Assembly: GCA_024679065.1 (NCBI GenBank)
Contig: JAGIQG010000012.1
Span: forward strand, 87,110,001-87,174,000
Length of the DNA: 64,000 bases
Source: Sphyrna mokarran
Lineage: Eukaryota
Direction of reading: 5' to 3'
The notes under the pieces were generated by a model. It was not told the origin of the DNA. It searched no databases and saw only the letters and a program-made list of their open reading frames with translations. A program made the translations under genes and the position numbers. Shown piece after piece: positions 4,190 to 62,579 of this stretch. Position 1 is the stretch's first letter. Every line of letters begins with the position of its first letter.

Positions 4190-4241
4190 CCAGCACCATG
4201 CAGAGGGTCAAAGTCAGAGCCCAGAGTGCAAGAACAAGCAT
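4190..4241 (-). pseudogene. Leader exon of divergent paralog, MLVLALWALTLTLCMVL(G), itself intact
   Basis: ATG at 4241, 17 hydrophobic codons + G|GTAAGT phase-1 donor. Confidence 0.82.
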
Positions 4242-31299: not shown

Positions 31300-31462
31300 T
31301 GTGCACTTCTTTCCTGATTTGTGTATTTCTTCCTCTTTCTGTGGTTATATTTCAGTCCCATGAACTGCAATAAATTCAGCCACATTTGCAATACCAGTGG
31401 TTTTATATACACTCGGTATGATAGAACACAAAGTTAGTCTTTGAAGAATAAGTTGGTTTAAA
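31300..31462 (+). promoter_or_regulatory. Putative proximal promoter with adjacent ETS/PU.1-like and RUNX sites
   Basis: CTTCCTCTTT (AAAGAGGAAG on minus) 31329-31338 next to TGTGGTT 31340-31346; TTTATATA near 31402; ~120 bp upstream of the ATG. Confidence 0.4.
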
Positions 31463-31508
31463 ATGTTTCAGCCATTTCTTTTAGTCCTGACCCTGGTCTT
31501 CATAACGG
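31463..31508 (+). CDS. Exon 1, signal peptide [15 protein letters not shown](G)
   Basis: AAAATG start, hydrophobic 15-mer, phase-1 donor G|GTAAGT; typical IgSF leader exon. Confidence 0.8.
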
Positions 31509-40500: not shown

Positions 40501-43500
40501 AAAGGATGAGAAGAGAAGGGATAGGACCTATAAAAGGTGAAGGGGGAAAAGTCTGTGTGGAACTAGAAGAAATGGCAGAGGTGCTTAATAAGTACTTTGC
40601 CTCAGTATTCACAGTGGAGAGTGATCTGGGGGGTTGTACTACAGGAATGCGGCAAACTGAAAAGATTGAGTATGTGACCATTAAGAAAGAGGAGGTGTTG
40701 GAACTGTTAAATTCCATCAAGATAGATAAGTTGCCGGGTCCAGATGGGATGTACCCCAGGTTACTGTGGAAAGTGATTGCAGAGCCCCTGGCGATGATCT
40801 TTGCATCGTCGATGGAGACGGGAGAGGTTCCGGAAGATTGGAGGATTGTGGATGTGGTGCCTATTTTCAAGAAGGGGAATAGGGATAGTCCTGGAAATTA
40901 CCGAACAGTGAATCTGACCTCAGTGGTCGGTAAGTTGATGGAGAGGATTCTGAGAGATAGGATTTATGAGCATTTAGAGAAATTCAATATGATCAGGAAT
41001 AATCAACACGGCTTTGTTAAGGGCAGATCGTGCCTTACGAGTCTAGTTGAATTCTTCGAAAATGTGACTGAACACATTGACAAAGGAAGAGCAGTGAACG
41101 TGGTGTACATGGACTTCAGCAAGGCGTTTGACAAGGTCCCACATGCAAGACTTCTTGAGAAGGTGAGAGGGCATGGGATCCAAGCGGCTTTGGCCTTGTG
41201 GATCCAGAACTGGCTTGCCTGCAGAAGGCAGAGAGTAGTTGTGGATGGGCCTTCTTCTGCATGGAGGTCAGTCAGCAGTGGAGTGCCCCAGGGATCTGTT
41301 CTAGGACCCTTGCTGTTTGTCATTTTCATAAATGACCTGGATGAGGAAGTGGAAGGATGGGTTAGTAAGTTTGCCAACGATAAGAAGGTCGGTGGTGTTG
41401 TGGATAGTCTGGAGGGATGTCTAAAGTTGCAGCGAGACATAGATGGGATGCAAGACTGGGCTGAGAAGTGGCAGATGGACTTCAACATGGATAAATGTGT
41501 GGTGGTCCATTTTGGCAGGACTAATGGGATGAAGCAGTATAATATCAAGGGTAGGAGTCTTGGCAGTGTTGAGGAGCAGAAGGATCTTGGGGTCCGGGTC
41601 CATAGGACTCTTAAGTCTGCCCCGCAAGTGGAGGATGTGGTCAAGAAGGCATATGGTGCACTGGCCATCATTAATAGAGGGATTGAGTTTAGGAGTCGGG
41701 AGGTAATGCTGCAACTTTATAAGACCCTTGTCAGACTTCACTTGGAGTATTGTGTGCAGTTCTGGTCGCCTCACTATAGGAAAGATGTGGAAGCTATTGA
41801 GAGAGTGCAGAGGAGATTTACAAGGATGTTGCCAGGATTGGGGGGCATGTCTTTTGAAGATAGGTTGAGAGAGCTAGGTTTCTTCTCCCTGGAGAGACGA
41901 AGGTTGAGAGGTGACCTGATAGAGGTTTATAAGATGTTGAGAGGAATAGATAGAGTGGATTCTCAGAGGCTATTTCCCAGGTATGAAATGGTCGCTATGA
42001 GAGGACACAGGTTTAAGGTGCTGGGGGGCAAGTACAGAGGAGATGTTAGAGGTGAGTTTTTCACTCAGAGGGTGGTGAGTGAGTGGAATCGGCTGCCGTC
42101 AGTGGTGGTAGAGGCGAACTCGCTGTGGTCTCTTAAAAGACTTCTGGATGAGTACCTGGGATTTAATGGGATTGGGAGTTACAGATAGTTCTATGGCCTG
42201 GTAAGTATAGATATGATCGGCACAACTTGTGGGCCGAAGGGCCTGTTTGTGTTGTAGTGTTCTATGTTCTACGTTCTATGATAGTTTGAGTTATAAGGAG
42301 AGGCTGGATAGACTGGGACTTTTTCCCCTGGAACGTAGGAGGGTGAGGGGTGATCTTGTGCAGGTCTATAAAATAATGAGGGGCACAGATCAGCTAGGAG
42401 TCAATATCTTTTCCCAATGGTAGGAGAGTCTAAAACTAGCGGGCAGAGGTTTAATGTGAGGGGGGAGGGCGGCAATTTCTTCACTCAGAGAGTGGTGTCT
42501 GGAACAAGCTGCCAGAGGTAGTACGAGATGCAGGTTCAATTTTGCCTTTTAAAAAGCGTTTAAACAGTTACATGTTTGAAATGGGTATAGAGGGATAAGG
42601 GTCAAAAGCAGGCAATTGGGAATAGCGTAAGGATTTAAAAGAAGCGACCAGTTTCCACGCTGTAAACCTCTATGATTCTGAAGTGGCAGTGCCAAGTGTT
42701 TCATAATAATAATGTTAATCTCTCAGATTGATTCAGGAAAATTAAGGAATGTGAAATTGACTTTCATAACAACTGAACAATTAAAAAGGTGAGACGTTAT
42801 CGAGCCCCCTCCCAGGAAACTCTCTAATAATGGAATTCCACAAGACTCTCCTCCATGGACTTGGAATTTGGATATTGGGAATGTAACAGGTCTGGGAGGC
42901 TGTGACCTGGAGGGGGGAACACTCCGCCAAGAAGACTGAAATCTGTAAACTAAAAATGTACCATTTACACAGACAAACAAATATAAAACAAAAATATGAG
43001 TGTAAAAGGTGTCACCTCAAAGTCTCACCCAATAGGAAAATCTCAGAAAATCTCAGGGTGTTTTGCCGGTAATTCAGATTCCCTGCAGACAGTCGGGGCT
43101 GGATTTCATCAAGTGTGCTATTCCCAATGGCATCACCAAAAGTGTGAACCGCTTCTCTCTCTACCTTTCCCCATGAATTAAAATCGGGAGCACAGGCAGA
43201 TGTGGACAGATGTGGTTGTTTAAGGTCAAGGAAGCTTTTTATTGGCGAACTTTGCATCAGCTGATGAAGTTATATCTCCAGGTGGAATTTAAAATAACTT
43301 CCACAGTGATGGGGATCGGGGAGAAAGGATAGGGAAGTTGGGAATGGGAAGGGAGGTAGCAGGGATAGCTGGACATCTCAAAATCTTTGAGTTTTTCAGA
43401 TCAGAGCATTTGATGATTTATTTACTATTTCCCCAAAATAATGTCAGCTGATGGATTTTTCATTGAAACATTTGGGATATTCACAACCGTCGCACTATTT

Positions 43501-46500
43501 TTTTAAGTTGTTGATATGTTTCCTTTAAAGGTGCAAATGTTCCAGTCGTTATCCAGTCTCCGAGTGTGGAACGTGTCACAGAGGGTCAGACTGCCCGGTT
43601 ACAGTGCACCCTGAGGAACGCCGCAGTGACACTCACTGATGTTCACTGGTACCAGGAGCTACCTGGGAAAGATAGGGAGAGAGTTTTAACACAGGATACA
43701 ATGAACAACACACAATGGAACTCAAATTTCACTGGGCGCTTCCAGCCTTCTAGAGACAGTTCCAATAACAGCTTCATTCTGACAATCACCATGGTGCAGC
43801 CCAGTGACACTGCCGTCTATTACTGCTCAGTGTGGGGAGATATCAGTGGCAATGGGACACAGCTGAATGTAACCAGTAAGTATGTGAGATTTGGTTAAAT
43901 TCACAATGACATCACGGCACAGAGGGGAGTTCTGTAACCATACACTATCAGAAGGAAGGAGAATGGACTGGAGGATTGGGGTTGTGATGTTGTGACCTTT
44001 TCTCTGACCAATATTCCGTGGGCTGGGAGAATGACATTGTGAACTCTTTGTCCTATACACAGTTCACTTCTGAATAGAATTGATAAACCCAAAAATAAAT
44101 GATTTCTGTTATACAGGTAGGCATTGGAATTCTAAAGCGATTTTAAATTGGACATTACAAAGCATGAATGTGGGAATGATCTGTTGCAATATAACTTAGC
44201 AGTAGATTATTCAATAATTCTCACATTTTTCTTGTTGATTTGATTTGATTTATTATTGTCACATGAATTAGTATATAGTGAAAACTATTGCCTCTTACAC
44301 TTTACAATCAAAGCATCCTGTTCATAGAGAAGGAAAGATGTTGCTCAGTGTAGTGTTTCAGCCATAGCTAGGGTGTAGTGAAAGGTCAAATAAGTCCATT
44401 TAAAGTCTGATGTGAAAGTTCAGTCACAGTCGCAGTTAGTTATCACTAATTCCTTGAATCGATCACCAACTCACCCCACAAACATCAGCCCTGAACCATT
44501 CGAATCAATCTCTGTTGGACCCTCTCGAGCACCTTGTCATCCTCTCTGAAGTGTCACGTCCACAACTGGACGTATGGCTAACTGATATTTTATAATTTCC
44601 TTTTGTTTGGGTTTTGTTTCATATGAAGAATGTTCAGGGTTCAGCACGCATTTTCAAATGCCTTCTGAACTTGTTTGACTAGCTTGAAGAACTGTGATGA
44701 TATAACTTCCTCAGATCCTGAATCCTGTTTGGAATTGTAGAATTTAATCGCATTGCCTCCCCTCAAGCTAATGAAACTTTGCTACTTTCCGCTTCTCTGC
44801 AGTAAATTTTGTCTGTTATGTCTCCACCTATTTCACTAGTCTGTCAATGTCACCTGGAGCCTGTCACCATTCATCTCCTTGCTGCGTTACTGAGGTCATG
44901 TCCCCTCCCACCGAAATATCACCAGTGTGAAAAAACACAATTCTATTACCACTTTTTACATTACAAGACATTTGAAATTAATCATTACAGATGGTGCAAA
45001 GATATTTAAGTTTTTTTTTACATCAATCATTTTGCACTCTGAGCTGCTTCAATGCAGTTGTGCTACTGGTAATATTCACCATATAGATTCAATGTGAGTT
45101 ACACAGGCCGAGGGGATTTTATATAATTTCCCTCCCCTTGGTTCACTCTGGCTGAAAGGTCTATAGACAGTGACCTTCTGCAATTGTGCCTCTATGGTGT
45201 CTGCCCCAAGCTTGAGTGTGTCCCTCAGCATGTAGACCCAGACCTTGGAATGTGCCAGTCTGTAACACAAAGTCGAGGGCAATTTTTTATATTGGAAACC
45301 AACAACTTTGGGGCAGACTAAAGAACATTTTTTTGCCGAGCAGACACATATTTCTACCATCATACTGAGCTTCCCCTATTCTCTATCTCCCTGAGGAGGA
45401 GTCATTGAACACAGCCTCTGCACACACTTGTTTAAGATCCAGGCCAGAAATTACAAAGTGTTTTGTGAAGTTATCCTAGATCCTAAGTTTTCACATTTGC
45501 TTTGGCACAAGGTGTGATTCACACTCTAGTTACGAATCTAGGTATGATTTCTTTGATAAAAGGAAGCTTTTATTTAAGAACACAATTAGAATATAATAAA
45601 AAAGAATTAGCATAACTTTTTACCAATTACAAGACTTAAACACGACATAATGTAATTCCTAACAGCTAGCTATCTCTGTTGTTCCAATCCCACTGATATA
45701 GACTCATCTTCAGTCTTAGCACAGAAAGCAAGTATGCTCATGTGATACAGCATCTTCAGCTTTGTAACAGCTATGGATATGAATCCAGACCAGCTGTTTG
45801 TAGAGAAAGATACCCTCAAAACATCCAAACCTCAGAGAGGTAAACTTAATCTTAGACATACAGAGAATGGAAACTCCCACTCCAAAGAGAGGGAAAACCT
45901 TCTGAAAACAAAACTCAAAACTGGACTTTTCTGCGAAGCGTAGCTGCTCATAGACACATGACATAAACTGTCAATCACCCACAATCTATACTCTGCAATC
46001 CCTAAGGACAACTAAAACCACAGAATATTACATTAGTCCAGATTAAAATCAACACGATATCAATTATACTGCCTCAGTAACAATAAAGAAAACTGGCTAC
46101 AGACAACAAGGTGCTAACAAATTTCCAAGGGCTGCAGAAACATCCTGCAGAAAAATATCATTCAAATACCTTTCTTAAAAGCAGTGTCACACTCCTGCCA
46201 TCAGTTTTGAGAGGGCGTATGGGGAATGAGTCAATCATTCTCAGATTCAGATACGCACGTCCCAGCCTTACTTTGACATTGTTAAGAACATTAAACAAGA
46301 AAGGAATAAGACGGCTGTTTTTTGGACAGTCCCTTTTCACAAACTCACTTTACAGACAATGAAATACATTGAAATAATACAATAATTGAATATGATATAA
46401 TAATTAAATACAAAATAATTTAATTAATAATTAAATAATAAATATTAATAAATAAATAATTTAAATTTAATAATTTGAAATTTAATTTAAACTTTAAATT

Positions 46501-49500
46501 AAATTTAATTTAATAAATTTAAATTTAATAAATAAGTTAATAATTAAATAATAAGTATTAATTAATTATTTAATTAATAATTAAATACAATACAATATAA
46601 TAATTAAACACAATGAAATCCTTGCTCTAAGAAGCACATTTTGTCTTTCATTGCTAGAGGGATGGAGTTTAAAAACAGCGAGATTATGCTGCAGCTGTAC
46701 TCCAGATGAGGTCACACCTGGAGTACAGTGTGCAGTTTTGGAGGGAGGACAGAGGAGATTCACTCGGTTGATTCCAGAGCTGAGAGGGTTGGCTTATGAG
46801 GAGAGACTGAGTAGACTTGGGCAATACTCATTGGAATTCAGAAGAATGAGGGGAGATCTTATAGAAATATATAAGATTGTGAAGGGAATAGATAAGATAG
46901 AAGCAGGGAAGTTGTTTCCACTGGTGGTGAAACTAGAACTAGGGGGCATAGCCTCAAAATAAAAGTGGAACAGATTTAGGACTGAGTTGAGGAGGAACTT
47001 CTTCACACAAAGGGTTGTGAATCAGAGGAATTCCCTGCTCAGTGCAGCAGATAACGCTACCTCATTGAATGCTTTTAAGGCAAGGATGGAAACATTTTTG
47101 AATAGTAAAGGAATTAACAGTTACAATGCATGAAGAGATCAGCCATGATCTTATTGAATGGCGGGACAGGCTCGAGGGACCAGCTGGCCGACTCCTGCCC
47201 CTAATTCATGTTCTTATGAATGGCCAATTGGTTTAGAGATCTTTAAATAATGATGTGGGAGATTTCACATCTAACTGGACTTATTTTATCATCTCAGTTC
47301 CGTAATAGTTTGTCCTAAAGAGTTACTCTAATGCTGTACTGAGAGTTGATGGCCTATGGAATTCTCTGCACTGCGGACTGACTCCAAGAACAGATTGCTT
47401 CAGTAAACCACAGCTGACATTCTCGACCACTTTGTCCAGCCAATCAGCCTGGAATCTGGCATATTAAAGATAAATGAATTGTTGAATGTTGAATGATAGA
47501 GAAATGTATCAATGTGTGTTAAAGTTCCATCTATTTCCCACCCACAGCTCCATTGTCTGACCCAGTCCTCATGCAGTATCCAACAGTCAGCAAGGTGACA
47601 GAGGGTCAGACTGTCGACTTACAATGTGCCATGTACACTGCCAGTGTGATTGACACTGATGTCCACTGGCATTACCAGAGAGCTGGCTACCACAGTGAGT
47701 GGCTGATCAGCCAGTTTGTGAATGGCACCGTTACCAAGTCCCGGGATTCCCACCACCGTTTCCAGCCTTCCCGGAATGTCAACAGCAACAGCTACATTCT
47801 GACCATTGTGAATGTGACCCTCAATGATACAGCTGTGTACAGATGCAGTGTGTGGAGCTACATCTATGGAGCAGGGAGCCAGCTCAATGTCATTGGTAAG
47901 TCAATGCTAACTAACATTGTCAGATTGACAGAAACATTACTGGAACCAGTTAACTTACCCACAATAGCTTAGACAAATTATTTCATTGGACTTCATTTAT
48001 TATTGCTAATATAGTGAAAAGTATTGTTTCTTGTGCATTATGCATAACAAATGTGTAGAGTATAGGGCTAATGGTAGGACTCTCAATAGTGTTGATGATC
48101 AGAGGGATCTTGGTGTATATGTTAATAGATCCTTGAAAGTTGGCAATCAAGTCGATAAGGTTGTTAAGAAGGCATATGGAGTCTTAGCTTTTATTGGTAG
48201 GGGGATTGAATTTCGGAGCCTCAACGTCATGTTGCAACTGTACAAAACTCTAGTGCGGCCGCACTTGGAGTATTGTGTGCAGTTCTGGTCCCCACATTAT
48301 AAGAAAGATGTGGAGGCATTGGAGAGGGTACAGAGGAGGTTTACCAGGATGTTGCCTGGTATGGAGGGCAGGTCTTATGAAGAGAGGCTGAGGGATTTGA
48401 GGTTGTTTTCGTTAGAAAGAAGGCGGCTAAGAGGAGACCTTATTGAAACATATAAGATGATTAGAGGTTTAGATAGGGTGGACAGTGATAGCCTTTTTCC
48501 TAGGATGGAGAAAGCTAGCACGAGGGGACATAGCTTTAAATTAAGGGATGGTGGTTATAGGACAGATGTCAGAGGTAGGTTCTTTACCCAGAGGGTGGTA
48601 AGGGTATGGAATGCTCTGCCTGCGTCAGTTGTAGATGCACCAAGTTTGGTGGCGTTTAAGAGGTTAGTAGATAAGTTTATGGACGAGAAGGGAATGGTTT
48701 AGGTTAGAGGGTCATTGCTTGTTCCTAATTGGTTGGCGCAACATCGAAGGCCGAAGGGCCTGCTCTGCGCTGTAATGTTCTATGTTCTAAAGCATACCGT
48801 TCATAGAAAAGGAAATGAGAGAGTGCAGAATGTAGTCTTACAATCATAGCTGGGGTGTAGAGAAAGGGTGTAGAGAAAAATGGAACCATAAACAGACACA
48901 ATACTGTACTGGGTGTGGAATCGAGAGCCGGAATGTTCTTTGTAAAATGAAATATTCAAGAATTAAATAGTGGAGATATAGAATTGTAGAAACATAGTAG
49001 ATAGGAGCAGGAGGAGGCCATTCAGCCCTTTGAGCCTGATTCATTACTATCACAGCTGATCATCCAACTCAATAGCCTAATCCTGCTTTTTCCCCATTAA
49101 CCTTTGATCCCATTCACCCCAAGTGCTATATCCTGCTGCCTCTTGAATACATTCAATATTTTAGAACATAGAACATAGAACATTACAGCGCTGAACAGGC
49201 CCTTTGGCCTTCGATGTTGCGCCAACCAATTAAGAAAAAGCAATGACCCTCTAACCTAAACCATTCCCTTTCCATCCATAAGCCTATCCACTGACTACTT
49301 AAACGCCCCCAAACTTGGCGCATCTACAACTGCAGCAGGCAGGACATTCCATACCCTCACCACCCTCTTGGGTAAAGAACCTACCTCTGACATCCATCCT
49401 ATAACTACCACCCCTTAATTTAAAGCTATGTCCCCTCGTGCTAGCTTTCTCCATCCGAGGAAAAAGGCTATCACTGTCCACCCTATCTAAACCTCTAATC

Positions 49501-52500
49501 ATCTTATATGTTTCAATAAGGTCTCCTCTTAGCCGCCTTCTTTCTAATGAAAACAACCTCAAATCCCTCAGCCTCTCCTCATAAGACCTGCCTTCCATAC
49601 CAGGCAACATCCTGGTAAACCTCCTCTGTACCCTCTCCAATGGCTCCACATCTTTCTTATAATGCGGGGACCAGAACTGCACACAATACTCCAAGTGCGG
49701 CCGCACTAGAGTTTTGTACAGTTGCAACATGACGTTGCGGCTCCGAAATTCAATCCCCCTACCAATAAAAGCTAAGACTCCGTATGCCTTCTTAACAACC
49801 TTATCGACTTGATTGCCAACTTTCAGGGATCTATGCACATATACACCGAGATCCCTCTGTTCATCAACACTATTAAGAGTCCTACCATTAGCCCTATACT
49901 CTACACATTTGTTATTTCTGCCAAAGTGAATTACCTCACACTTTTCCGCATTAAACTCCATTTGCCACCTCTCGGCCCAGCTCTGCAACTTGTCTAAGTC
50001 TCTCTGTAAACTATAACACCCCTCTTCACTATCTACCACTCCTCCAACTTTGATGTCATCAGCAAATTTTGGCATCAATTACTTCCTGTGGTAATGAATT
50101 CCACAGGCTCACCACTCTTTGGGTGAAGAAATGTCTCCTCATCTTCTTCCCAAATGGTCTACCCTGAATCCTCAGACTGTGACCCCTGGTTCCAGACAAC
50201 CCCACCATCGGGAACATCCTCCCTGCATCTACCCTGTCTAGTCCTGTTAGAGTTTTATAGGTCTCTGTGAGATCATTTGTCCGAACTCCAGCGAAAACAA
50301 TCCTAACCTGGTCAGAAGAGATCAAAGATATTTCTATGGTCCATGGACGCGGGAGTCACTGACAAAGCCAGAATTTATTGCCTGTTCCTAAATACCCTTG
50401 GGAAGATGTTGATAAAGAGCCTTCTTGAACTTCTGCAGGCAGAGATGTTTGATAGAACTGAGTGGCTTGTGAAGCTATTTCAGTAAATAATTCATTTCTA
50501 CCACGTTGCTGTGGCTCTGAGGTTATATTCTGGCCAGACTTGGTCAGGACAGCAGATTTCTTACCCTACAGGATTTTGGTGAATCAGATAGATTTTTTAA
50601 ATAATTTGGTAGTTTCACGGTGCCCATTAGAGTCATAGAGGTTTACAGTATGGATGTCCATGCCGCCCATTACTCACACTAAGATTTTTCTTTCAAATTT
50701 ATTTAATTGATCTGTATTCAAAATCCCCTGCTGCCCGGGGACTCGGGTAGCAATGGAGAAAAGAAAAGCAGGTGTAGGTTACATGGCCTTTGAACCTGCT
50801 CTAACATTCGGAGAGAACAGCAATGAAGGAGGAAAATACAGAGAGAGAGAGAGTGGGGAAGCATCGTTCTCACCGGCCTGATCACCTTTCCTGAGTTTCC
50901 TCACACCTCATCAATGACATCACGAGGTTCACATCCATAAAAGGCGAGAACCTAATTCTAATGTTTTTGAATTCATTATCATTATCCAGCCCCGTCACAT
51001 GATTTCCAACCCCCCCTCCCCTCAATATTCAAACCTCGCGCTGTGATGTCATGTTGGAGTAGGTTAGTACAGCTGTTTGAAGATGTGATTCAAGCGAGGG
51101 AGCCTTCCTGAGAACGTGAGGGTAAGTATCGGCCAACGAGGGGATCTCTCTGAGAATGTGAGGGTAAGTGACACCGCAACTGGTTTTGCTGTGGGGAGAG
51201 GTTGGGCAAAGAGCAAGCGAGCAATTGTAATGGAGGACTCACTCATTAGAGGCACAGACAGGTGTTTCTGTGGCTGCAATTCCAGGATGGTGCTTTGCCT
51301 CCCTGATGCCAAGGTCAAGGATGTCTCTGAATGGTTGCAGGACATTCTTAGGGGGCTGGTGAGCAGCCAGAGGTTGTTGTACATGTTGGTACCAACATCA
51401 TAGATAGGAAAGGGGATGAGGTCCTGAAATATGAACACAGAGAGTTAGGCAGAAGGCTAAAGTGCAGGACCTCAAAGGTAATAATTTCAGGACCATTGCC
51501 ATGTGTTCCTGATGTTCCTGGTACCGGGAGCTATCTGGGAAAGATAGGGAGAGAATTTTAACACAGGATACAATGAACAACACACAATGGAACTCAAATT
51601 TCACTGAGTGTTTCCAGCCTTTCAGGCCGCTGCCATGTGTTCCTGAGATTATGAATAGGAAGATTAGGCAGATGAATGCCAGGCTTGAGAGCTGGTGCAG
51701 GAGGGCAGGACTTTAGACTTTTGGATCACTGGCATCTTTTCTAGGGAAGGGCTAATCTGTTCAAGAGGGATGGGTTATATTTGAACTGGAAGGGGCAACT
51801 AACATCCTGACGGGGAGATTTGTTAGAGCCGCTCGGGAGGGTTCAAACTAGTTTGGCAGGGAATGGGATCCAAAGCACTAGGGAGACAGGAGAGAAATTT
51901 GAGGACAACATGGAAGTCAAAGAGAGCACATTAATTAGTAAAGACACGGTCAGTAATTCGAGTACCAGACAGATCAGACAAAAGCGAGAGCAAGTGAAGT
52001 TCAGATTAAGCTGCATTTACTTCAATGCAAGAGGCTTGATGGGTAGGTGGGACTGGGATATTATAGCAATTACTGAAACATGGCTAAGAGAAGGACAGGA
52101 CTGGCAGCTCAGGCAGTTGTATAAAACGTTGGTTAGACCTCATTTGGAATACGTCCAGTTCTGGTCACCTTACTACCAGAAGGATGTGGAGACTCTGGAG
52201 AGAGTGCAGAGGAGATTTACCAGGATGCTGCCTGGTATGGAAGGTCTGAGTTAAGAGGAGAGGGGAGAGATACAAAAGTGTCCAGAGGGGCAATTTTTTC
52301 AGACAGAGAGTGGTGAGTGTCTGAAACAAGCTGCCAGCGGTAGTAGTAGAGGTGAGTACAATTCTATTCTTTAAAAAGCATTTAGGCAGTTACATGGGTA
52401 TGATGGATATAGAGAGATATGGACCAAATGCAGGCAATTGGGATTAGCTTATAGAACATAGAACATAGAACATAGAACATAGAACACTACAGCACAGAAC

Positions 52501-55500
52501 AGGCCCTTCGGCCTTCGATGTTGCGCCGACCAATATAAAAAGCAATGCCCCTCCAAACTAAACCATTCCCTTCTCTTCCATATACTTATCAACTAACCTC
52601 TTAAACGCCACCAAACTTGGCGCATCTACAACTGCTGCAGGCAGGGCATTCCACTCCCGAACCACCCTTTGGGTAAAGAACCTGCCACTGATATCCGTCC
52701 TATAACTATCACCCCTTAATTTAAAGCTGTGTCCCCTCGTGCTATGGGTTTAAAAAAAAAGGGCAGTGTGGACAAGTTGGACCAAAAGGCCTGTTTTCTT
52801 GCTGTAAACCTGTGTGACTCTAATTATCACCCTATAAAGGGAATTTCCTGAGAATGTCAGGGTAAATATTGCCCAACAAGGGAGCGAGAGGGTAAGAATC
52901 TCTGCTGGGAGTGTCAGGGTAAGTATTGTCCAACAAAGAGATTTTCTTGGGAATATGAGGGTAAGTATTGCCCCTCGGGTATTTTCCTGGGAGTATAAGA
53001 GTAAATATTGTCCCTGGGGAATTTTCCAGGGAGTGTGAGGTTAAGTATTGCCCCTGGGAAATTCAGGAAACAGATTTGCGTGTATAATTTTGTAAAGATA
53101 ACTTAAAAAATTTCCAACAAATTGAGGTTTTTATTTGAGCTTTTCTGGGTTTTTAACCCAAATGAAATCAGTATTTATCAACATTGTCATCTCCTGATGG
53201 AGGAGACAATTGTGATTGGTTGATTGCTTTGTTGAATTCCTCCATTCATTCCGATAAATCTACTGGATTCACATTTAGCTCTCGCTGTTATACCTTTCAG
53301 GGCCCTCTCTACACTCTACCAAACTGTAACTTCCAATCCAATCACCATCCACTATCTATCAACCCATCCACAGCCAAATCTCCCAATGCTGGATCAATGG
53401 ATGACTGCGAATGGGCTGAAAGTCTTGTTCTCATTTTACAGAGACACTGATCATTGACAATCAGCAATGTGGGGCCCACTGTGTGACGGGCCCATCACGG
53501 TGGCTCAGTGGTTTGTGCTGCTGTCTCACAGCACTAGGGACTGGGTTCGATTCCCGACTTGGGTCATTGTCTGTACGGAGTTTGTATGTTCTCATTATGT
53601 TTGTGTAGTTTTCTCTGGGCGCTCCAGTTTCCTCACCCATTCCTCCTTCTGCACTGTAGGCATTCTAGGAGACCTCTGTTTCTGAGCAGCAACATACAAT
53701 GGCCTTTCCAGACAGTCTGATAAACATGCTACCCTGTCAGTCATACCATAGAGTCATAGAGCTTTATAGCAGAGAAACAGGCCCTTTGGCCCAACTTGTC
53801 CATGCTACCCTTCTTTTTCAATGACACATTGAACCTCCTGTTTTTATTTACCCGAAAGGAAAATTCTGCAAGATAAACCTCAGTAATCTTTGAATATGTT
53901 GCAGCAGAACAATGTAGTCTTTACATGGATTTATCTTTCATCCAATTGCTGTTTGTGGGAACCATGTTAATGGTTGTAGTAAATACGGTTTAATTCAATC
54001 ATCTGACTTTTCAAAGCTGTTGCAGTGAACAAGCTTCCCAATTGGTCCATTCACTTCCCAGGCTACCGAGTGATATTTGTAAAACTTATACTCCTGGTCT
54101 GTGGGTGCCGCTGGCTGGGCTAGCGTTTATTGCCCCTGCCTGAGAGCAATTAAGAGTCAACTACATTATTGTGGGCCTGGAGTCACATGTAGACCAGACC
54201 AGGTGAGGATGGCAGATTTCTTCCCTAAAGGACATGAGTGAACCAGATGGGTTTTTACAACAATTGACAATGGCTTCATGGTTTTAGTTCCAGATTTATG
54301 TTGACTTCATCTTTCACCAGCGTGATGGGTTTTGAACCCGAGTGTGACTGCAGGAATTTACTGTATATGGATAAAATTCCCTCCAACTAACCGTGTTCTG
54401 GCTCTGGCTGTCTCTAATGAGTTCCTTGCCACCTGAACTCTTGATATTACAGTGCAATTCCAAAGCTTTCAGTTACTCCTGAGAGCAGCAACAAAGTGTA
54501 GATATCTAATTTCTGTCTGTGATTAAATTGGCGTCACAAATAGTCACCATTTATCAGACCCAACACAATTTCATTCTCGGGAAAATTAATGGAAATTATA
54601 ATTGATATTTTTCTTTGAAAAGCAACAATCTCTGGAATTTTATTGCCCTGCTCGCCACGGGAATCGGAGCAGGGAAAGAGCAGACCATGGGAAGGTCCAC
54701 TGAGCTCAGGTGGAATTTTGTGGGCTGTAAAATCCCACCGCAATCTCTCACATCGATTGTATATCCAAGAGCCTGATCCTCTACCTTCCATTGTTCCACT
54801 CTGTGTGATCACCATGAGTCCAGCTGTTAGCTACACCATCTGTCTGACTTGATGCCCAATAGAAATGATGGAAGGAAAAGATCTCTGCCTCTCCCATTCT
54901 AACCTAGTTTTCTCAAGGACAGGAATCCAACTCACTGCCCCATAATGTGGTGGAGTCTGAATCGAAGGAGATAGATATATTCCTGGCCAAAAAAAGGGTT
55001 GAGGGGGTATGGAAGGAAGGTGGATTTGAGACCAGGTCGAGATCAGCCAGGATCTGATTGAATGGCGGAGCAGGCTTGAACGGCTGAATTTGCCAACTTC
55101 TGCTCCTAATTCTTGTGTTCCTCATTCTTTACTTCACAAATGTTAAACTATACAAAATCTCTTACAGAAGATGTTGAAAGCCGGCCTATCATCAGCATTA
55201 TTGCCTGCGCCCTGGCACTTGTTCTCCTCCTCTGCATATTTATTATCACAATATGCTGTGTGAAAAAATGGGCGTGTTTCCAAAGCAGATTAAAGCCAGA
55301 ACGGTAAATATAACTTACCTTCCTCTCCCACTTGATGATAATGTTGTGTTGAATTTGATTGCAGGGATCAAATCAGCCGCAGAATCTGGATAAAGGAGTT
55401 TTGCTTTTTGTGATTTTCTTTCCTGGGCAGATAAATACAGAGTATCAAAGGTTGGATGGGGGAAATGGTTTTTCCCCCGAGCCCTTTTGTAAGAGTGGGT

Positions 55501-58500
55501 GTCAGCTGTCACATTGAAGGAATGGAAAAATTAAACACTTTAGATAAATGCTCCCATTGGCGGGTACACTGCAAATGCAAAACTGTCACTACTGGAAACA
55601 CAGCGTGAGCACAGAAAGCGTTCTTTCTAGTTGTATCACAGCTTGATACGGCTCCTGCACTGCTCCAGAACACGAGGAACTGCAAAAAGTCATGAATGTA
55701 GCACAATCCATCACACAAAGCCAGCTTCCCATCCATTGACTCTGCTACACTTACTGCTGCCTCAGCAAAACAGCCAGCATAATTAAGGACCCCACGCACC
55801 CAAACATTCTCTCTTCCTCCTTCTATCATCGGGAAAAAGATACAAAAATCTGAGGTCACGTACCGACAGACTCAAGAACAGCTTCTTCCCTGTTGCTGTC
55901 AGACTTTTGAATGGACCCTACCTTGCATTAAGTTGATCTTTCTCTACACCCTAGCTATGACTATATTTTGCACTCTCTCGTTTCCTTCTCTATGAACATT
56001 ATGCTTTGTCTATATAATACACAAGAAACAATACTTTTCACTAGGCTAATGCATGTGACAATAATAAATCAAATCAAATCAAAGATTCAGAAAACAGTAG
56101 CTATTGCAGAACATTTTGATACAAATGGTGATGAAAACTTTGTCAAATGCAACTGATAACTCAGGGTAAATATGAAATGCACGAAAATGTGGCTCTCATG
56201 AAATGCTCAACTTCACCCCATTGAAATGATTAAATGGGAATTCCTGTGTATAATTTCTGCGGTTTTGATAAGTAACTCTTCCTCATTATATCATGACATA
56301 TAATCCTAACCCCCTTCTACAACTTACACCTTTAACATCACTGCACCTTCACACTCACTCAATGACCATGGATTCCTGCTCAGTTATCTCCTAATATTGA
56401 ATCCAGCTGCATCCTTAAGGAAATTTGGTCACAATTGGTTGAATCGCTCAGTCGTACCACTGTTAGAGTGGAGACCATTCTGCCCATTGAGTCAATGCCA
56501 ACACTCAGCAGAGGATTCAGTCAGTTTAATGATTATTAATCTAGCTGGGAATTTAATTGTCCCAAGTGCCTATCAAATGGCTTTTGCCATCAATCATTGA
56601 CCCTGTTTCCAGTTCATTACCACTTGTTGACTGAAAATTTCTTTCATAAATCCTGACACTACCCCCCACCACCACCCCGTCCTTCCCTAATCCTGTCACC
56701 CTTTGCTCATTATCTTAATTCTGTCTCCTGCAGTCCTTCTGCTGTCAGCAAATACAGCTGTTCTTTGTTTTATGGAGACCTGTCCACCTCAAAGTGCTCA
56801 TATCACACCAACCAACCTATCATTGCATGTGTGAAGTTTTATTGTAAAGAGTAAGAGATACACTTTGTCGTCACAAATGTTCAACCAAGGAGTGGGACGA
56901 GGTAATCTTTTCTGCTCAATGTGGACTCAGTGTTAAATTGTCTTATTGAAATGTTGTAAATGAATCATTGATGGTCTTTCTGTCTGCTTTGCCCAGACCC
57001 CATGAAGAGGAATTGGATACAGTGTACGCACATGTCTATGGTAAGAAAGCCTTTCAGTACATTGCAAACGGGTTATTCCAAATTCTATTAATTGCTTATT
57101 ATTATTTCTAAACATCAGTTGTTTGAAATTTGTACCGATCATTGTTTTCTCAGAAAAATGGACAATTTTCATGTTTCCGTTGTAATGACCCAGGTCACAG
57201 ACTCCAAGGTGTTTTATGAAGTTAGCCTCGACCCTCAGTTTCACAATTGATTTTGGCTTTTGGGCGATTTCACTTTGGGTATGATTCAACCAACCCACTC
57301 ATCAGAGTTTATTTAAGGACACAGTTAAAATGTAACAAAAGTAAATTAGCATAACTCCTTGGGCAGGCTCTAAGGGCTGGATGGCCTACTCCTGCTCCCA
57401 TTTCTTATCATGTCCTATCAATTACCAAGATTTTAACTAAACACAATATAAACTTTAACGGCTAGCTATCTCTGTTGTTCCAAGTTAAACACCATCCCAT
57501 AGACACACACCCTTTTTGAGTCTTGGCACAAAAAACAAGTGTTCTCCACATGATACTGGATTTTCAGCTTTTTTATATCTTCTGTGAATTGGTCTTTTGA
57601 ATGTTTGATTAAATCTCTGAGCCTTCTCAGCCCTGGAACTTTCAGCAAGTCTCTAAAGAGAGAGAGAGATACTATCTGCACCCACCAGCTTCTAACAGTA
57701 ACTGAGAAACAAAACTAAAACCTGCACTTTTCTGTGGAAAAAAACTGTCCCCGGGCATCATCTGACCTGTCAATTATCCCCCAAATCAAGATCAAATCCT
57801 TAAAGGACCATTAAACCCCTGAATGCTGCATTAGTCTGGATTAAAATCAGTGTGTTATCAATTATAGTGTCTCAGTAGCAATAAAGGGAACTGATCACAG
57901 AGATCACAGTGCCGACAGCTTCCAGGACCTACCAGAAACATCCTGCAGAGAAACATGATTAAAATACATCTGTTAAAAGGCAAAGTATCATCACACAATC
58001 ACTCAACCTCTGCACCAAGCAGACTGCACAGGAATGCTCCCTCATTCATACAGCCTGATATTTTCCCCAGCCACTCTGAACTATCAGGGTGTTAGCACCA
58101 ATTAGAGATACTAAGAGTTAGTTATAAAGCTGTGTTGAGATAACAGCACAAGAAGGTTTTTGTCCATTAATTCCTGGCTGAATTCAAACCCCAGTTTCCA
58201 GTGCTTATTAGACATTGCACCTTCATCACCTTCGCACGGGAATTTAAACCACTGATCCTCAACTCTTTCATTTGGTTCTACATAGATGTGCAGCACTCTC
58301 TCAGCACTGACCCTCTGACAGTGCGGCACTCCCTCAGCACTGACCCTCTGACAGTGCGGCACTCCCTCAGCACTGACCCTCTGACAGTGCGGCACTCCCT
58401 CAGCACTGACCCTCTGACAGTGCGGCACTCCCTCAGCACTGACCCTCTGACAGTGCGGCACTCCCTCAGCACTGACCCTCTGACAGTGCGGCACTCCCTC

Positions 58501-61500
58501 AGCACTGACCCTCTGACAGTGCGGCACTCCCTCAGCACTGACCCTCTGACAGTGCGGCACTCCCTCAGCACTGACCCTCTGACAGTGCGGCACTCCCTCA
58601 GTACTGACCCTCTGACAGTGCGGCACTCCCTCAGTACTGACCCTCTGACAGTGCGGCACTCCCTCAGTACTGACCCTCTGACAGTGCGGCACTCCCTCAG
58701 CACTGACCCTCTGACAGTGCGGCGCTCCTCAGCACTGACCCTCTGACAGTGCGGCGCTCCCTCAGCACTGACCCTCTGACAGTGCGGCGCTCCCTCAGCA
58801 CTGACCCTCTGACAGTGCGGCGCTCCCTCAGCACTGACCCTCTGACAGTGCGGCGCTCCCTCAGCACTGACCCTCTGACAGTGCGGCGCTCCCTCAGCAC
58901 TGACCCTCTGACAGTGCGGCGCTCCCTCAGCACTGACCCTCTGACAGTGCGGCACTCCCTCAGCACTGACCCTCTGACAGTGCGGCGCTCCCTCAGCACT
59001 GACCCTCTGACAGTGCGGCACTCCCTCAGCACTGACCCTCTGACAGTGCGGCACTCCCTCAGCACTGACCCTCTGACAGTGCGGCACTCCCTCAGCACTG
59101 ACCCTCTGACAGTGCGGCACTCCCTCAGCACTGACCCTCTGACAGTGCGGCACTCCCTCAGCACTGATCCCTGATTGAGAAATGCTGTGTTACTGTTCAC
59201 CCTCTGCAGTTGAGTGCTACACTAGAATGTGAACATGTTGTGGGGTGTGAACCCCCAGCCTTCTCAATCCAAGACAGCAACCCTATTAAAGCAAAATTGA
59301 ATTCCATTGAGTGTGTGTGTGTGCTGTACAACTGAAGAGTGTAGAGTGGGGTGCAGTGGGAGACAGTCTAACTCCACACTTTCGATAATGTTGCTGTTTC
59401 ATCCTGATTGGTAGTTATAGCAACTTCATTAAAAGTCTTCTCTTATTTCAGGTCAAATGCAGAATAACAAAGAGGAGGCTGAGACTCCTGCTGTGGTAAG
59501 GGGTTTTTGACTGATGGGTTTAGCTCAGTTGGCAGGACAATGGTTTGTGATGCAGGGCAATGCCTAACCTCATGGGTACAGTTCCTGTATTGGCCGTGAT
59601 TGTTCACAAAAGCCTTACTTTCTCAACCTCTCCTCTTGCCTGTGGTGTGGTGATCCTCAGATTAAATCAACATCAGCCTTCCCTTTAATGGGGAAAGCAA
59701 CCTCTGGTTATCAGGGACTGTGGTGACTGAAGACAATGGAATCATCTCCTTATCAGGACATTCCCACATAGTCTTGAAGCTGTATCTTGAGTCCTCAGAC
59801 TATAATTTTACTCACATGTTGTTTTTAACTCTTTCACAATCTATCTCAGTTTTAAAATATTCAGTGGACCTCCTCCCTTGTCCTTCTGGGGAGAGAATGT
59901 TCTATAGATTCCATCAACTGCTTTCTGATGACATCACTCCAAAGGCCAAAGGTTGTACCTCCTCGCTCCCTCCCTCGATAGATATTGTCATGTGTCTGAC
60001 TGTGGGACACTGGTCCAGTGACCATTCCAATGGTGAAGACCTCCCTCACCTCCCACCAGCTGTGCCCCCTGATATAAATCTGCCATTGTCCCATGCTGGG
60101 AGCAGGCTGAGATGAACACATCCTGATTAAATTAACCAGTAGGCGACAATTAACGTGACAAATACCAACCTGAATAGCTATTCACAGTTGTAGATGCGCC
60201 AAGTTTGGTGGCGTTTGAGAGGTTAGTAGATAAGTTTATGGATGAAAAGGGAATGGTTTAGGTTAGAGGGTCATTGCTTTTCTTAATTGGTCGGCGCAAC
60301 ATCAGAGGCTGAAGGGCCTGTTCTGCGCTGTAATGTTCTATGTTCTGTGTTCACTGAGTCGGTGAGGTCTCACAGAAACCTGGCAGTGCTGAACCAGGAG
60401 GTCAGTAAGGGGAGAGGGAGTAACATCCAACACTGCCCAATTCTGGGCAAGAAAACAATTTTCCAAAATCTCCGATCCCAATCTATCTGTCCTCAGATAC
60501 ACTCATTCCCAGGCAGCCCCTGTAGTGTTTGTGTTCTGGTCTCTGTTTCATTCTTCAGTCCCACCTCATTGTGCAGGAAGAAGGATATTGAAATGTCAGG
60601 GATGACAATGGCTGTATTTTATTGTCATGGGATGTGGGTGTCACAGGGAAGGCCATTTGCTAATTACTTTGCATGTGCTGTGGGTTAGTGCTCAGTGTAA
60701 GGCCAATCTGTAGGTAATTATGGTGAGTAGGCTGTTGTTTCTATGACGGGTTTATAGCATCGCACATAGATACAGTTTACAGGTTCCAGCCAGAGATTGT
60801 GTTTAATCTCCAGAAGGTAAAAATTCAAAAGTGCTTGATCAGTCGATGCATGGGATATTCTGGTGTAGTTTGTGATGGGATTATTCCAGGTGCAATTTAG
60901 TTTGGGATTATTCTGGATGCAGTTTGGAATGGGGTTATTCTGGGTATAGTTTAGAATTCGATTATTCTGGATGTAGTTTAGGATGGGAATATTCCAGGTG
61001 AAGTCTGGATGGGATTATTCTGGGTTTAGTTTGGGATGGGGATATTCCAGGTGTAGTTTAGGTTAAGATTGTCCCGGTTGTAGATTGGAATGGCATTATT
61101 CTGGGTGTAGTTTGGTTTGAGATTATTCTGGGTGTAGTTTGGGATGGGATAACTGCAGGTGTAGTCTGGGATGGCATATTCTATGTGTAGTTTGGAATGG
61201 GGTTATTTCAGGTGTATTTTTAAGACCCTTGTCAGACCCCACTTGGAATACTGTGTGCAGTTCGGGTTGCCTCACTACAGGAAGGATGTGGAAGCTATTG
61301 AAAGATTGTAGAGGAGATTTACAAGGATGTTGCCTGGATTTGGGGGCATGAAGATAGGTTGAGGGAACTAGGTCTCTTCTCCCTGGAGAGACAAAGGTTG
61401 AGTGGAGATCTGATAGAGGCTTATAAAATGTTGAGAGGAATAGATAGGGTGGATTCTTGGAGGCTAATTCCCAGAACTGAAATGGTTGCTAGGAGAGGAC

Positions 61501-62579
61501 ACAGGTTTAAGGTGCTGGGCAGCAAATACAGAGGAGATGTTAGTGGTAAGTTTTTCACTCAGAGGGTGATGAGTGAATGGAATCGGCTGCCGTTGGTGGT
61601 GGTAGAGGCGAACTCGTTGGGGTCTTTTAAAAGACTTCTGGATGAGTATATGGGATTAAATGGGATTGGGAGTTACAGATAGTTCTAGGGCCTGGTAGGT
61701 ATGGATATGACCATTACAATTTGTGGGCCAAAGGGCCTGTTTGTGCTGTAGTGTTCTATGTTCTATTTTGGGATGGGATCTCCTAGGTGTAACTAATGGT
61801 GGGATTATTCCAGGTGCAGTTTGGGATGGGATAATCTGCGTGTAGTTTGGGATGGGAATATTCTGGATGTTGTTTGGGATGGGAATATTCTGGATGTAGT
61901 TTGGAATGAGATTATTCCGAGTGTAGTTTGGGATGGGATTATTCCGAGTGTAGTTTGGGATGGGATTATTCCGGGTGTAGTTTGGGATGGGATTATTCCG
62001 GGTGTAGTTTGGGATGGGATTATTCCGGGTGTAGTTTGGAACACGAGTTATTCTGGATGTAACTTGGGATGCTATTCTTCCAGGTATAGTTTGGGATGGG
62101 ATATTCTGGGTGTAGATTAGGATGGGTGTAATCTGGGTTTACATTGAAGGGATGTGGTGATTGTCCTTTTAAGGATCATACCTCACTGTAACCATGACCA
62201 AGGAGATCAGTCAAGGACCAGGGTCAGGGATGATCTTGGTAAGTGGGGGCTCTGTACACAGACTCATGCCGGGGGCTGACGGCAGCTAGGTGGCAAGAAG
62301 CCTCGGCATCGTTTAATCCAATAATAAACAAGTTGTGTGGTTTGGCAGGATGATTTAGGAGTGGGGATTTGGCAGTTTGATTGGGTTGGGGATGTAGTTT
62401 GTGGGGGGAGAGTGTCTCTCCCCAGGTAGTAAAATCCTCTGTGTCTCGTCATGTTTCAGCTAGACGAGGGAGAATTGTTTTACGCCGACCTCCAGTTCCT
62501 CCATCAGAAAAGCAGAACGTCAACACCTTTGGACACTGAGGAGACGACTGTTTATGCTGCTGTTAAATACTCCCAGTGA
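31463..62579 (+). CDS. Multi-exon gene: inhibitory Ig-superfamily receptor with three germline-joined VJ-type domains (L-VJ-VJ-VJ-TM-cytoplasmic ITSM/ITIM/ITSM), ~478 aa; join(31463..31508,37268..37621,43531..43875,47548..47895,55168..55303,56997..57040,59452..59495,62460..62579)
   Basis: All exons have AG/GT boundaries. Intron phases are 1,1,1,1,2,1,0. Exon lengths 46+354+345+348+136+44+44+120 = 1437 nt = 479 codons, open from ATG to TGA. Confidence 0.88.
31700..31985 (-). mobile_element. V-SINE with duplicated tRNA head
   Basis: Two CACGG/TACGGTGACACAGTGGTTAACA heads in tandem, followed by the V core. Confidence 0.75.
32221..32622. mobile_element. MITE-like element with internally amplified 27/81-bp GC-rich tandem repeat
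   Basis: AGCTGGCATTCTCCGACC ... GGCCGGAGAATTCCAGCT terminal inverted repeats; GCTGG(G/A)ATTCTCCGG repeats every 27 bp. Confidence 0.6.
33518..34835. repeat. 19-21 bp minisatellite (CACAGTCCCAACACTGAGACA) with ~492-bp higher-order duplication
   Basis: Direct reading; ORFs 33518-34000 and 34007-34492 are near-identical. Confidence 0.95.
35730..36270 (+). mobile_element. Old LINE APE-endonuclease relic with SINE head inserted at ~35895-35985
   Basis: Reads [30 protein letters not shown] across frameshifts. Confidence 0.6.
36720..37230 (+). mobile_element. CR1 3' fragment ending just before the V1 acceptor
   Basis: [26 protein letters not shown]. Confidence 0.85.
37268..37621 (+). CDS. Exon 2, V domain 1 with joined J-like strand
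   Basis: Acceptor tctctttacag|. Encodes [45 protein letters not shown]. Donor A|GTGAGT. Confidence 0.93.
38056..42279 (+). mobile_element. Near full-length CR1 LINE (ORF1 esterase + ORF2 EN/RT; 640-aa open RT portion) nested in an older CR1 fragment (37955-38055 and 42280-42680)
   Basis: GDSIVRG esterase motif, [11 protein letters not shown] motifs (FADD changed to FAND), (GTTCTAT)n tail; host LINE resumes in register on both sides. Confidence 0.93.
39578..39700 (+). mobile_element. 123-bp Penelope-end insertion with 9-bp target-site duplication ATGGAAGTT
   Basis: ATGGAAGTT at 39569-39577 and 39701-39709; insert homologous to 2810-2884 and 29266-29342. Confidence 0.8.
43531..43875 (+). CDS. 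Exon 3, V domain 2 with joined J-like strand
   Basis: Acceptor tttcctttaaag|. Encodes [46 protein letters not shown]. Donor A|GTAAGT. Confidence 0.93.
45429..46189. mobile_element. Probable solo LTR (TG...CA, 4-bp TSD CACT)
   Basis: CACT|TGT...GTCA|CACT; diverged second copy at 57181-57995. Confidence 0.65.
46360..46610. repeat. AT-rich low-complexity tract
   Basis: ~250 bp almost exclusively A/T. Confidence 0.9.
46655..47215 (+). mobile_element. CR1 3' fragment
   Basis: [20 protein letters not shown] motif plus UTR. Confidence 0.8.
47548..47895 (+). CDS. Exon 4, V domain 3 with joined J-like strand
   Basis: Acceptor ttcccacccacag|. Encodes [46 protein letters not shown]. Donor G|GTAAGT. 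Confidence 0.93.
48044..48789 (+). mobile_element. Young CR1 3' portion inserted in an older LINE tail
   Basis: 223-aa ORF almost identical to the C-terminus of 4888-5958. Confidence 0.92.
49162..50068 (-). mobile_element. Young CR1 3' portion nested in an older CR1 3' end (48980-49161, 50069-50310)
   Basis: KFADD to C-terminus, (ATAGAAC)n tail; host resumes at ATTTTGGCATC. Confidence 0.9.
51170..52822 (+). mobile_element. Internally deleted old CR1 (ORF1 esterase, EN start, RT end) with young antisense CR1 3' end at 52451-52743
   Basis: [25 protein letters not shown], then a jump to [12 protein letters not shown]. Confidence 0.8.
51509..51623 (+). pseudogene. Isolated internal fragment of a V2-type exon inserted in a CR1 relic
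   Basis: Matches ~43637-43750 (DVx[30 protein letters not shown]), no splice sites. Confidence 0.88.
53496..53640 (+). mobile_element. V-SINE fragment
   Basis: CACGGTGGCTCAGTGG..GGTTCGATTCC head plus V core. Confidence 0.7.
55168..55303 (+). CDS. Exon 5, stalk + transmembrane helix (E)[44 protein letters not shown](R)
   Basis: Acceptor ctcttacag|, ~24 uncharged hydrophobic residues followed by KK, phase-2 donor CG|GTAAAT. Confidence 0.88.
55620..56083 (+). mobile_element. Rex1/Babar-like LINE 3' end (related tails at ~44237-44410 and 47990-48870, minus)
   Basis: C-terminus [25 protein letters not shown]; (AAATC)n tail. Confidence 0.65.
56997..57040 (+). CDS. Exon 6, cytoplasmic (R)[14 protein letters not shown](G), ITSM-like TVYAHV
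   Basis: Polypyrimidine acceptor ctttctgtctgctttgcccag|, donor G|GTAAGA; phase fits exons 5 and 7. Confidence 0.8.
57181..57995. mobile_element. Second diverged LTR-like copy
   Basis: Shares GTGTTTT.TGAAGTTA, AATTAGCATAACT, GCTAGCTATCTCTGTTGTTCCAA and CATCCTGCAG with 45429-46189. Confidence 0.6.
58287..59168. repeat. 33-bp tandem repeat CAGCACTGACCCTCTGACAGTGCGGC(A/G)CTCCCT, ~27 copies
   Basis: Direct reading; 11-aa periodic ORFs. Confidence 0.97.
59452..59495 (+). CDS. Exon 7, cytoplasmic (G)[14 protein letters not shown]
   Basis: Acceptor cttctcttatttcag|, donor GTG|GTAAG; phase 1 in, phase 0 out. Confidence 0.78.
60183..60345 (+). mobile_element. Young CR1 extreme 3' end
   Basis: Matches 48626-48789. 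Confidence 0.85.
60850..62140. repeat. 30-bp minisatellite (TTTGGGATGGGATTATTCCGGGTGTAG-like) interrupted by a CR1 3' fragment at ~61216-61765
   Basis: Repeat units on both sides of a LINE piece similar to 41718-42279. Confidence 0.88.
62460..62579 (+). CDS. Exon 8, [43 protein letters not shown] (LFYADL) + ITSM (TVYAAV)
   Basis: Acceptor atgtttcag|, phase 0, two consensus tyrosine motifs, TGA at 62577-62579. Confidence 0.88.
   Translation, partial: LDEGELFYADLQFLHQKSRTSTPLDTEETTVYAAVKYSQ

Follow-up and report, generated by a model that had tools for sequence, protein, structure and literature searches.

A predicted transmembrane receptor with three VJ domains and a paired ITIM/ITSM tail in Sphyrna mokarran, one member of a receptor family of sharks and rays

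The immune receptors PD-1 and BTLA carry a pair of tyrosine motifs with a spacing of about 24 residues, which fit the two SH2 domains of the phosphatases SHP-1 and SHP-2. In PD-1, the two tyrosines (Y223 and Y248) are separated by 25 residues, and the consensus (T/V)EYATIx(F/Y) has been given (PMC12151841). The sections of the same source on SH2 preferences state that the C-terminal SH2 domain (C-SH2) of SHP-2 has a preference for T at −2, for A at +1 and for I at +3 of the phosphotyrosine (pY), that the N-terminal one (N-SH2) favours L at +3, that both benefit from F at +5, and that SHP-1 binding is promoted by A at +1 of an ITIM (immunoreceptor tyrosine-based inhibitory motif). Binding of SAP is tied there to a hydrophobic residue at pY−1, while Glu at that position argues against a SAP switch. 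The NITRs of ray-finned fish combine clustered, germline single-exon VJ (variable plus joining) domains with ITIM tails and are reported to lack homologs in cartilaginous fish (bioRxiv 10.1101/2021.06.11.448072). The light chain sigma-2 of cartilaginous fish (also known as type I, NS5 or sigma-cart) consists of one V and one CL domain and is secreted with a heavy chain. Here, we describe a gene in a 64,000-nt stretch of the hammerhead Sphyrna mokarran (GenBank assembly GCA_024679065.1, contig JAGIQG010000012.1, positions 87,110,001 to 87,174,000 of the forward strand; "the window" hereafter), predicted to encode a transmembrane receptor with three VJ domains and a tail in which an ITIM is preceded and followed by immunoreceptor tyrosine-based switch motifs (ITSMs).

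Eight exons joined by GT-AG introns (31463..62579; Table 1) yield a single open frame of 478 amino acids, ordered as a leader, three VJ domains, a transmembrane segment and a tail of ~81 residues. The three motifs noticed in the first-pass annotation, TVYAHV (Y420), LFYADL (Y447) and TVYAAV (Y471), all lie in this one frame, the proximal one on a mini-exon of its own (44 nt). The 24 residues from Y447 to Y471 and the acidic run before each of the three motifs are also as that annotation had them. The splice sites of exons 6–8 rank 1–16 among the ~455 GT or AG sites from exon 5 to the stop codon. When the 81-residue tail was shuffled in 200,000 trials, a post hoc control, two ITSMs and one ITIM were obtained in 4 of them. 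The reading frame is supported independently by an alignment of the tail with six shark and ray proteins annotated by NCBI, in which 33–54 of 82 residues are identical; the predicted splicing in this species follows from splice signals and annotated orthologs.

Each V exon carries at its end its own J-like strand, GxG(T-type). All three are V-set domains, a search of the three Ig exons against Pfam giving no C1-set match, and the transmembrane exon follows them directly. The first two complementarity-determining regions (CDR1 and CDR2) measure 8 and 7 residues in V2 and V3, while CDR1 is longer in V1. Sequence searches of the PDB with the V domains returned antibody fragments, and an Atlas search led to light-chain V clusters at 0.95; the exon-8 peptide found no match in the PDB.

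A search with the V2 exon identified 102 homologs among 215 candidates, 101 of them named and all of these from sharks or rays. A profile built from 16 homologs gave 118 matches among 7,997 scored candidates, every named one elasmobranch; in neither search did we find a named bony-vertebrate homolog. The automatic labels of the homologs are inconsistent (SIRP-alpha-like, pIgR-like, perlecan-like). Selection of the 102 homologs by the juxtamembrane motif alone left 29, and removal of two truncated isoforms gave a set of 27 orthologous tails, isoforms and paralogs included, that represents 14 species of sharks and rays. The counts below are taken from this set, since the value of 100% for Y447 in the alignment of the tail class is circular, the selection filter there having demanded Y447.

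The ITIM/ITSM tyrosine pair is kept in all 27 tails, so that the tail passed the test of conservation in orthologs proposed at the outset. The spacing of the pair is 24 residues in 22 tails and 23 in the other five; in a related second tail class, it is 24 in 13 out of 13. YADxxF occurs in 27/27 tails, distal TxYxx[VI] in 26/27 and proximal T[VI]YxxV in 20/27, and conservation of the linker residues is poor. Most orthologs have TEYAxI as their distal motif, with Glu at pY−1 in 24 tails and Val or Ile in three. Of the three tyrosines, the proximal one varies most: it is kept in 33 of 39 distinct tails and is altered in some tails of Heptranchias, Pristis, Narcine and Mobula hypostoma.

The gene belongs to a cluster found in elasmobranchs, in which similar V exons, two to six in tandem per gene, are joined to tails of at least four kinds. 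Among 123 family proteins, 36 have a tail of the class described here, 13 the related class, 30 a three-tyrosine tail, six a double-YxN tail and 38 none or another. In the hammerhead genome itself, the best 24 matches to the V exon are all on one contig (87.11–87.96 Mb); the gene alone bears this tail there, and its neighbours have other tails, some of them being broken. Only three of 100 predicted transmembrane helices (125 proteins) contain a charged residue, one of these being a mis-called signal peptide. Given this near absence, the family is not of the classic paired kind that relies on DAP12-type partners; its variety resides in the tails. In 10 V2-type exons of the hammerhead's cluster, pN/pS (the ratio of the proportions of non-synonymous and synonymous differences) is 2.75 in 21 CDR codons versus 1.25 in the framework, values given without a significance test. 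In two of the copies the first cysteine is missing, and relaxed selection may therefore play a part.

The conservation of the pair and of its 23–24-residue spacing in all 27 tails makes recruitment of SHP-1 or SHP-2 likely, and the conserved tail residues agree with the SH2 preferences given in the cited parts of PMC12151841. To judge from the sequence, the predicted receptor probably inhibits immune cells, ligand-induced phosphorylation creating a two-point docking site for SHP-1/SHP-2, and it is likely to work like PD-1 or BTLA. The V domains would bind a cell-surface ligand, upon which a Src-family kinase would phosphorylate the acid-flanked tyrosines. The phosphatase would then dock with its C-SH2 domain on the distal T-x-pY-A-x-V/I and with its N-SH2 domain on pY-A-D-I/L-x-F, and would thus be opened beside an activating receptor. 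The proximal TVYAxV may provide an accessory site, where SAP could bind.

Several points weigh against an inhibitory function of this kind. Docking of SHP-2 may also signal positively, and the 27 tails are non-independent, isoforms and paralogs being among them. The strict ITIM consensus is found in only 16 of the 27 (often with M at −2 or T at +3), and the named bamboo-shark genes of the family are not among the cell-type markers in the searched part of the PMC11372145 supplement. We have further considered that the receptor could be a dual-mode switch, in which SAP on the proximal motif converts or blocks inhibition as in the SLAM family. Such a switch would be compatible with inhibition by SHP-1/SHP-2. 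In the hammerhead gene, both ITSMs have the hydrophobic pY−1 residue of the SLAM type (Val in the distal motif), the feature tied to SAP in PMC12151841, and a SAP-like gene (SH2D1A-like) marks T cells in the bamboo shark (PMC11372145). Across the family, however, this residue is present in 20/27 proximal versus 3/27 distal motifs, and the proximal tyrosine is the one least conserved, and we regard the switch as rather unlikely. The initial description of a checkpoint-type, possibly switchable receptor stands as regards the inhibitory ITIM-plus-ITSM type (27/27 tails); across the family, the prevailing Glu speaks against a distal switch, while a proximal one is plausible. The multigene family and the resemblance of the ectodomain to light chains had escaped that description.

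Less probable by far than inhibition is a role in adhesion or scaffolding in the manner of PECAM-1, with SHP-2 serving to transmit positive or non-immune signals. Tandem ITIM/ITSM modules occur in adhesion receptors too, and there are ten N-glycosylation sequons. Nevertheless, the lineage-specific expansion, the broken copies, the exchange of tails and the concentration of variation in the CDRs are all typical of immune receptor clusters. That the gene is the shark PD-1 or another checkpoint gene of the CD28 family can be almost completely discounted. The distal TEYAxI shared by the orthologs is close to the PD-1 consensus, and the spacing of 24 is close to 25; the gene, however, has three V domains, no Ser/Thr stalk and no PPP/EIP motif in CDR3. 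A separate PD-1 with one V domain has been documented in sharks and skates (PMC12151841), and PD-1 as defined there (a single V domain plus a Ser/Thr-rich stalk) was rejected, as were CD28, CTLA4 and CD28H, which have one V domain with PPP or EIP in CDR3 (PMC11599192) versus a six-residue x[VI]W[GS]xI here. None of the PD-1-linked genes NGEF, ATG16L1, DGKD, SNED1, MTERF4 and BOK is among the neighbours identified in 1.06 Mb around the locus (86.91–87.634 and 87.66–88.0 Mb). The family differs from PD-1 and BTLA also by the extra proximal motif with ITSM consensus and by its multigene cluster. The spacing that had been called PD-1-like is thus indeed near that of PD-1, but it belongs to a generic tandem-SH2 module, and true shark PD-1 differs in V count, stalk and, as far as the 1.06 Mb covered here go, neighbours.

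SIRPs comprise one V and two C1 domains, SLAM receptors a V and a C2 domain, and the V domains of CD300, pIgR and MDIR have a second disulfide. Together with the Siglecs, these clustered Ig-superfamily receptors resemble our family in their ITIM or ITSM tails, but the latter lacks C1 and C2 domains, has two cysteines per V domain and includes a J motif. SIRP was rejected, all three domains being V-set, and so was the SLAM family by its V-plus-C2 ectodomain. The second disulfide of CD300, pIgR and MDIR is also absent; MDIR, which resembles CD300, TREM and pIgR (PMC3031540), was compared by description only. NITRs were rejected for their six-cysteine I domain, there being two cysteines per domain here; the family further differs from them in having tandem V domains only and almost no members with a charged transmembrane segment. 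With UrIg and UrIg2, the family shares single-exon VJ domains and a split leader (PMC12227049), and UrIg2-like V domains are the next closest in our trees. The UrIg genes have three or more C1 domains and are described as located in the MHC or antigen-receptor complexes (PMC12227049), whereas the family has no C1 domain and lies elsewhere, and UrIg/UrIg2 were rejected on the VJ-then-C1 architecture.

Outside the family, the closest V domains are those of sigma-2, which share the 8/7-residue CDR1/CDR2, the RFQPSRD framework and, in three genes, the shape of the six-residue joint. The two differ in that the family has no C1 domain or C exon, no recombination signal adjoining the J ends, two to six tandem V exons, a membrane anchor and a signalling tail. 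The best non-family matches of the profile search were shark light chains. One of these, P0156, is 45% identical to V2 and grouped with light chains of horn shark and dogfish; we assigned it to sigma-2 on account of its 8/7-residue CDR1/CDR2 (PMC5985310), lambda, kappa and sigma having been excluded. All labels in our trees (lambda, kappa, sigma, sigma-2, TCR, UrIg2-like, CD8-like) were likewise assigned from sequence features. V2 shares 42–49% identity with sigma-2 V domains and 32% with UrIg2-like V, and with no non-family group other than sigma-2 does the value exceed 36%. Four trees (44–52 rows, 99 columns; the last two without near-duplicates and some long branches) joined the family with sigma-2 with support of 96/88, 90/92, 98/87 and 96/79. 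A library-wide search added divergent family-like domains as well as a V-C1 protein, P0280, which is 39% identical to horn shark sigma-2 and, on a long branch, groups with the family (support 96/85). Furthermore, a germline CDR3 of six residues is present in 265 of the 266 distinct V domains of the family and conforms to x[VIL]W[GS]x[IVL] in 228. The CDR3 EVWGYI is common to three sigma-2 genes from three genera (P0178, P0179, P0184). These nest inside sigma-2, which means that the isotype can yield such a joint and does not imply direct descent. Germline joining of sigma-2 has been reported for skates and for a single locus of the nurse shark (PMC5192425).

The grouping with sigma-2 and the fixed germline CDR3 suggest that a RAG-joined antibody exon was co-opted as an innate receptor. 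Tentatively, we propose that a sigma-2 V and J were joined by RAG in the germ line of an early cartilaginous fish, after which the C exon would have been lost and the VJ exon multiplied in tandem ahead of SHP-recruiting tails, giving rise to an innate receptor family of sharks and rays. Some of our results count against this origin. The family is the sister of the named shark and ray sigma-2 clade and stands outside it, and the trees contained no named bony-fish or chimaera sigma-2. Topologies in which the family was forced to join UrIg2-like V or to fall outside all antigen receptors stand in the approximately unbiased (AU) test (p = 0.156, 0.324, 0.106). A tree with all four light-chain isotypes forced together to the exclusion of the family was rejected (p = 0.006), and we do not count this as support, because the unstable position of sigma may drive it. 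The V exons could instead represent a primordial VJ lineage, never split and related to UrIg2, an origin that we consider possible though somewhat doubtful. The AU results and the sister position speak for it, and a UrIg2-like exon also has an 8/7-residue CDR1/CDR2, so these lengths may be ancestral. Against it, the best tree pairs the family with sigma-2 in all four builds, V2 is clearly nearer to sigma-2 than to UrIg2-like V, the light-chain-like P0280 groups with the family and no named bony-vertebrate homolog came up in our homolog searches. Moreover, the neighbourhood with MCM3 and PTK2B lies on another contig than the immunoglobulin heavy-chain, T-cell receptor (TCR) and UrIg2-like exons.

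A broken constant exon of sigma-2 type occurs in this genome at G000:C1027:1406708 (L183) and C1018:4689. We found no sigma-2 V exon in this assembly, and the isotype may be lost or unassembled here. Single-exon VJ genes, all of them next to a C1-like exon, form another cluster at G000:C1027:2288502-2795854 (L200, L201, L212) and on C868 (L202); these genes group weakly with TCR V domains. In addition, six divergent family-like VJ domains (P0250, P0257, P0262, P0275, P0282 and P0286) have two extra cysteines around a short CDR3 and possibly form a separate lineage.

The elasmobranch multi-VJ receptor family with light-chain affinity is apparently undescribed: there was no prior description in the literature searched, subscription journals being mostly outside its coverage, and the relevant parts of PMC6795676 and PMC10751288 do not mention it. 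Taken by itself, the tail is a textbook example of an SHP-recruiting module, and the interest lies in the diversified shark and ray family. Single-exon VJ domains bear on the long-debated choice between a relic that predates the splitting of a V gene by the RAG transposon (PMC12227049) and later germline joining (PMC2193156). It was predicted that a re-joined immunoglobulin gene could become a new receptor, a direct example being lacking (Lee et al. 2000; PMC2193156); germline joining, if true for this family, would provide one. Since a single, particular light-chain isotype is closest to the family, the question is testable with a better-sampled tree. Either origin adds a candidate inhibitory receptor family in cartilaginous fish.

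Skipping of exon 6 or exon 7 had been predicted to shift the frame and yield motif-poor isoforms. Either skip does shift the frame, yet no isoform that skips exon 6 or 7 alone is annotated among the 29 selected proteins and 33 further cluster members. Without exon 6, the protein would stop four residues past the junction; without exon 7, Y420 would be the sole tyrosine motif kept, and joint skipping of the two (88 nt) leads to an immediate stop after the shift. The stop in the exon-6-skip transcript is 28 nt upstream of the last junction, and by the 50-nt rule the transcript would probably evade decay. Among the homologs, the transmembrane exon appears to be skipped in P0044 and P0105, and the transmembrane exon plus exon 6, in frame, in P0091, while P0013, P0134 and P0029 seem to end early (exon mapping inferred from the protein). 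An in-frame skip of exons 5 and 6 is also possible in the hammerhead gene.

Table 1. Exons of the predicted hammerhead receptor gene (positions in the window)
Feature	Position	Strand	Match or property
Exon 1: 46-nt leader; 11 more leader nt begin exon 2 (split leader)	31463..31508	+	
Exon 2, V1: VJ domain in one exon, two cysteines	37268..37621	+	Pfam V-set E=3e-14
Exon 3, V2: VJ domain in one exon, CDR1/2/3 of 8/7/6 residues	43531..43875	+	Pfam V-set E=1e-17
Exon 4, V3: VJ domain in one exon	47548..47895	+	Pfam V-set E=1e-15
Exon 5: uncharged transmembrane helix with a short spacer; juxtamembrane KKWACFQ is conserved	55168..55303	+	Hydropathy 3.2 over 21 residues
Exon 6: 44 nt, proximal ITSM-consensus motif TVYAHV (57019-57036, Y420)	56997..57040	+	
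Exon 7: 44 nt, tyrosine-free linker; aligns with catshark and white shark tails	59452..59495	+	
Exon 8, coding part: ITIM LFYADL (62475-62492, Y447), ITSM TVYAAV (62547-62564, Y471), stop	62460..62579	+	

The leader sizes, 46 and 11 nt, are of the antigen-receptor type. All antigen-receptor genes are described as having such a split leader (PMC12227049). Upstream of the start codon (window 31340-31410), an octamer-like word with one mismatch occurs at −79 and a TATA at −59; RUNX- and ETS-type words lie at −123 to −152, without a chance control. A 98.6% copy of the leader region is present at ~87.24 Mb.

Exons that flank the cluster in the 1.06 Mb match MCM3 and PTK2B as well as the stathmin, DUF4772, NDK and FAD-oxidase families. 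We take these genes to include STMN4, ZNF395, NME6 and GULO, the region presumably corresponding to human 8p21/6p12. In the bamboo shark, GULO (LOC122552567) is numbered near the family genes LOC122552551 and LOC122552557, which fits shared linkage to GULO without proving it. LOC122553189, a myeloid/stem-cell marker in the bamboo-shark atlas, is adjacent in number to the family gene LOC122553190; we have not used this as evidence. A V-set exon at 86910446 resembles, we presume, the B7/butyrophilin type. Related coiled-coil-like genes occur on both flanks of the cluster (G000:C224:86926678-86930967 and 87992999-87998308), and a multi-V block exists in near-identical inverted copies (G000:C224:87258248-87277071 and 87349341-87358027). 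In one family member (G000:C224:87958117-87970223; L003, L015), the second V exon continues in frame into ~1,000 repeat residues with 71 N-glycosylation sequons, likely a mucin-like stalk; the 1,999-residue skate protein P0087 is similar.

Within the window, a broken paralog is present on the minus strand (911-1248 and 2638-2999), with a frameshifted V2-type exon and V1-type fragments containing stops; a leader-like exon near it (~4190-4240) was read by eye. Another V2-type exon fragment is isolated in repeat sequence of intron 4 (51504-51629). Long tandem arrays with units of 21, 21 and 33 bp, along with a reverse-transcriptase-like frame, occupy 6169-14776, 33519-34838, 58288-59172 and 40254-42188. 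The reverse-transcriptase-like frame, 644 amino acids long and situated in intron 2, presumably belongs to a CR1-type retrotransposon.
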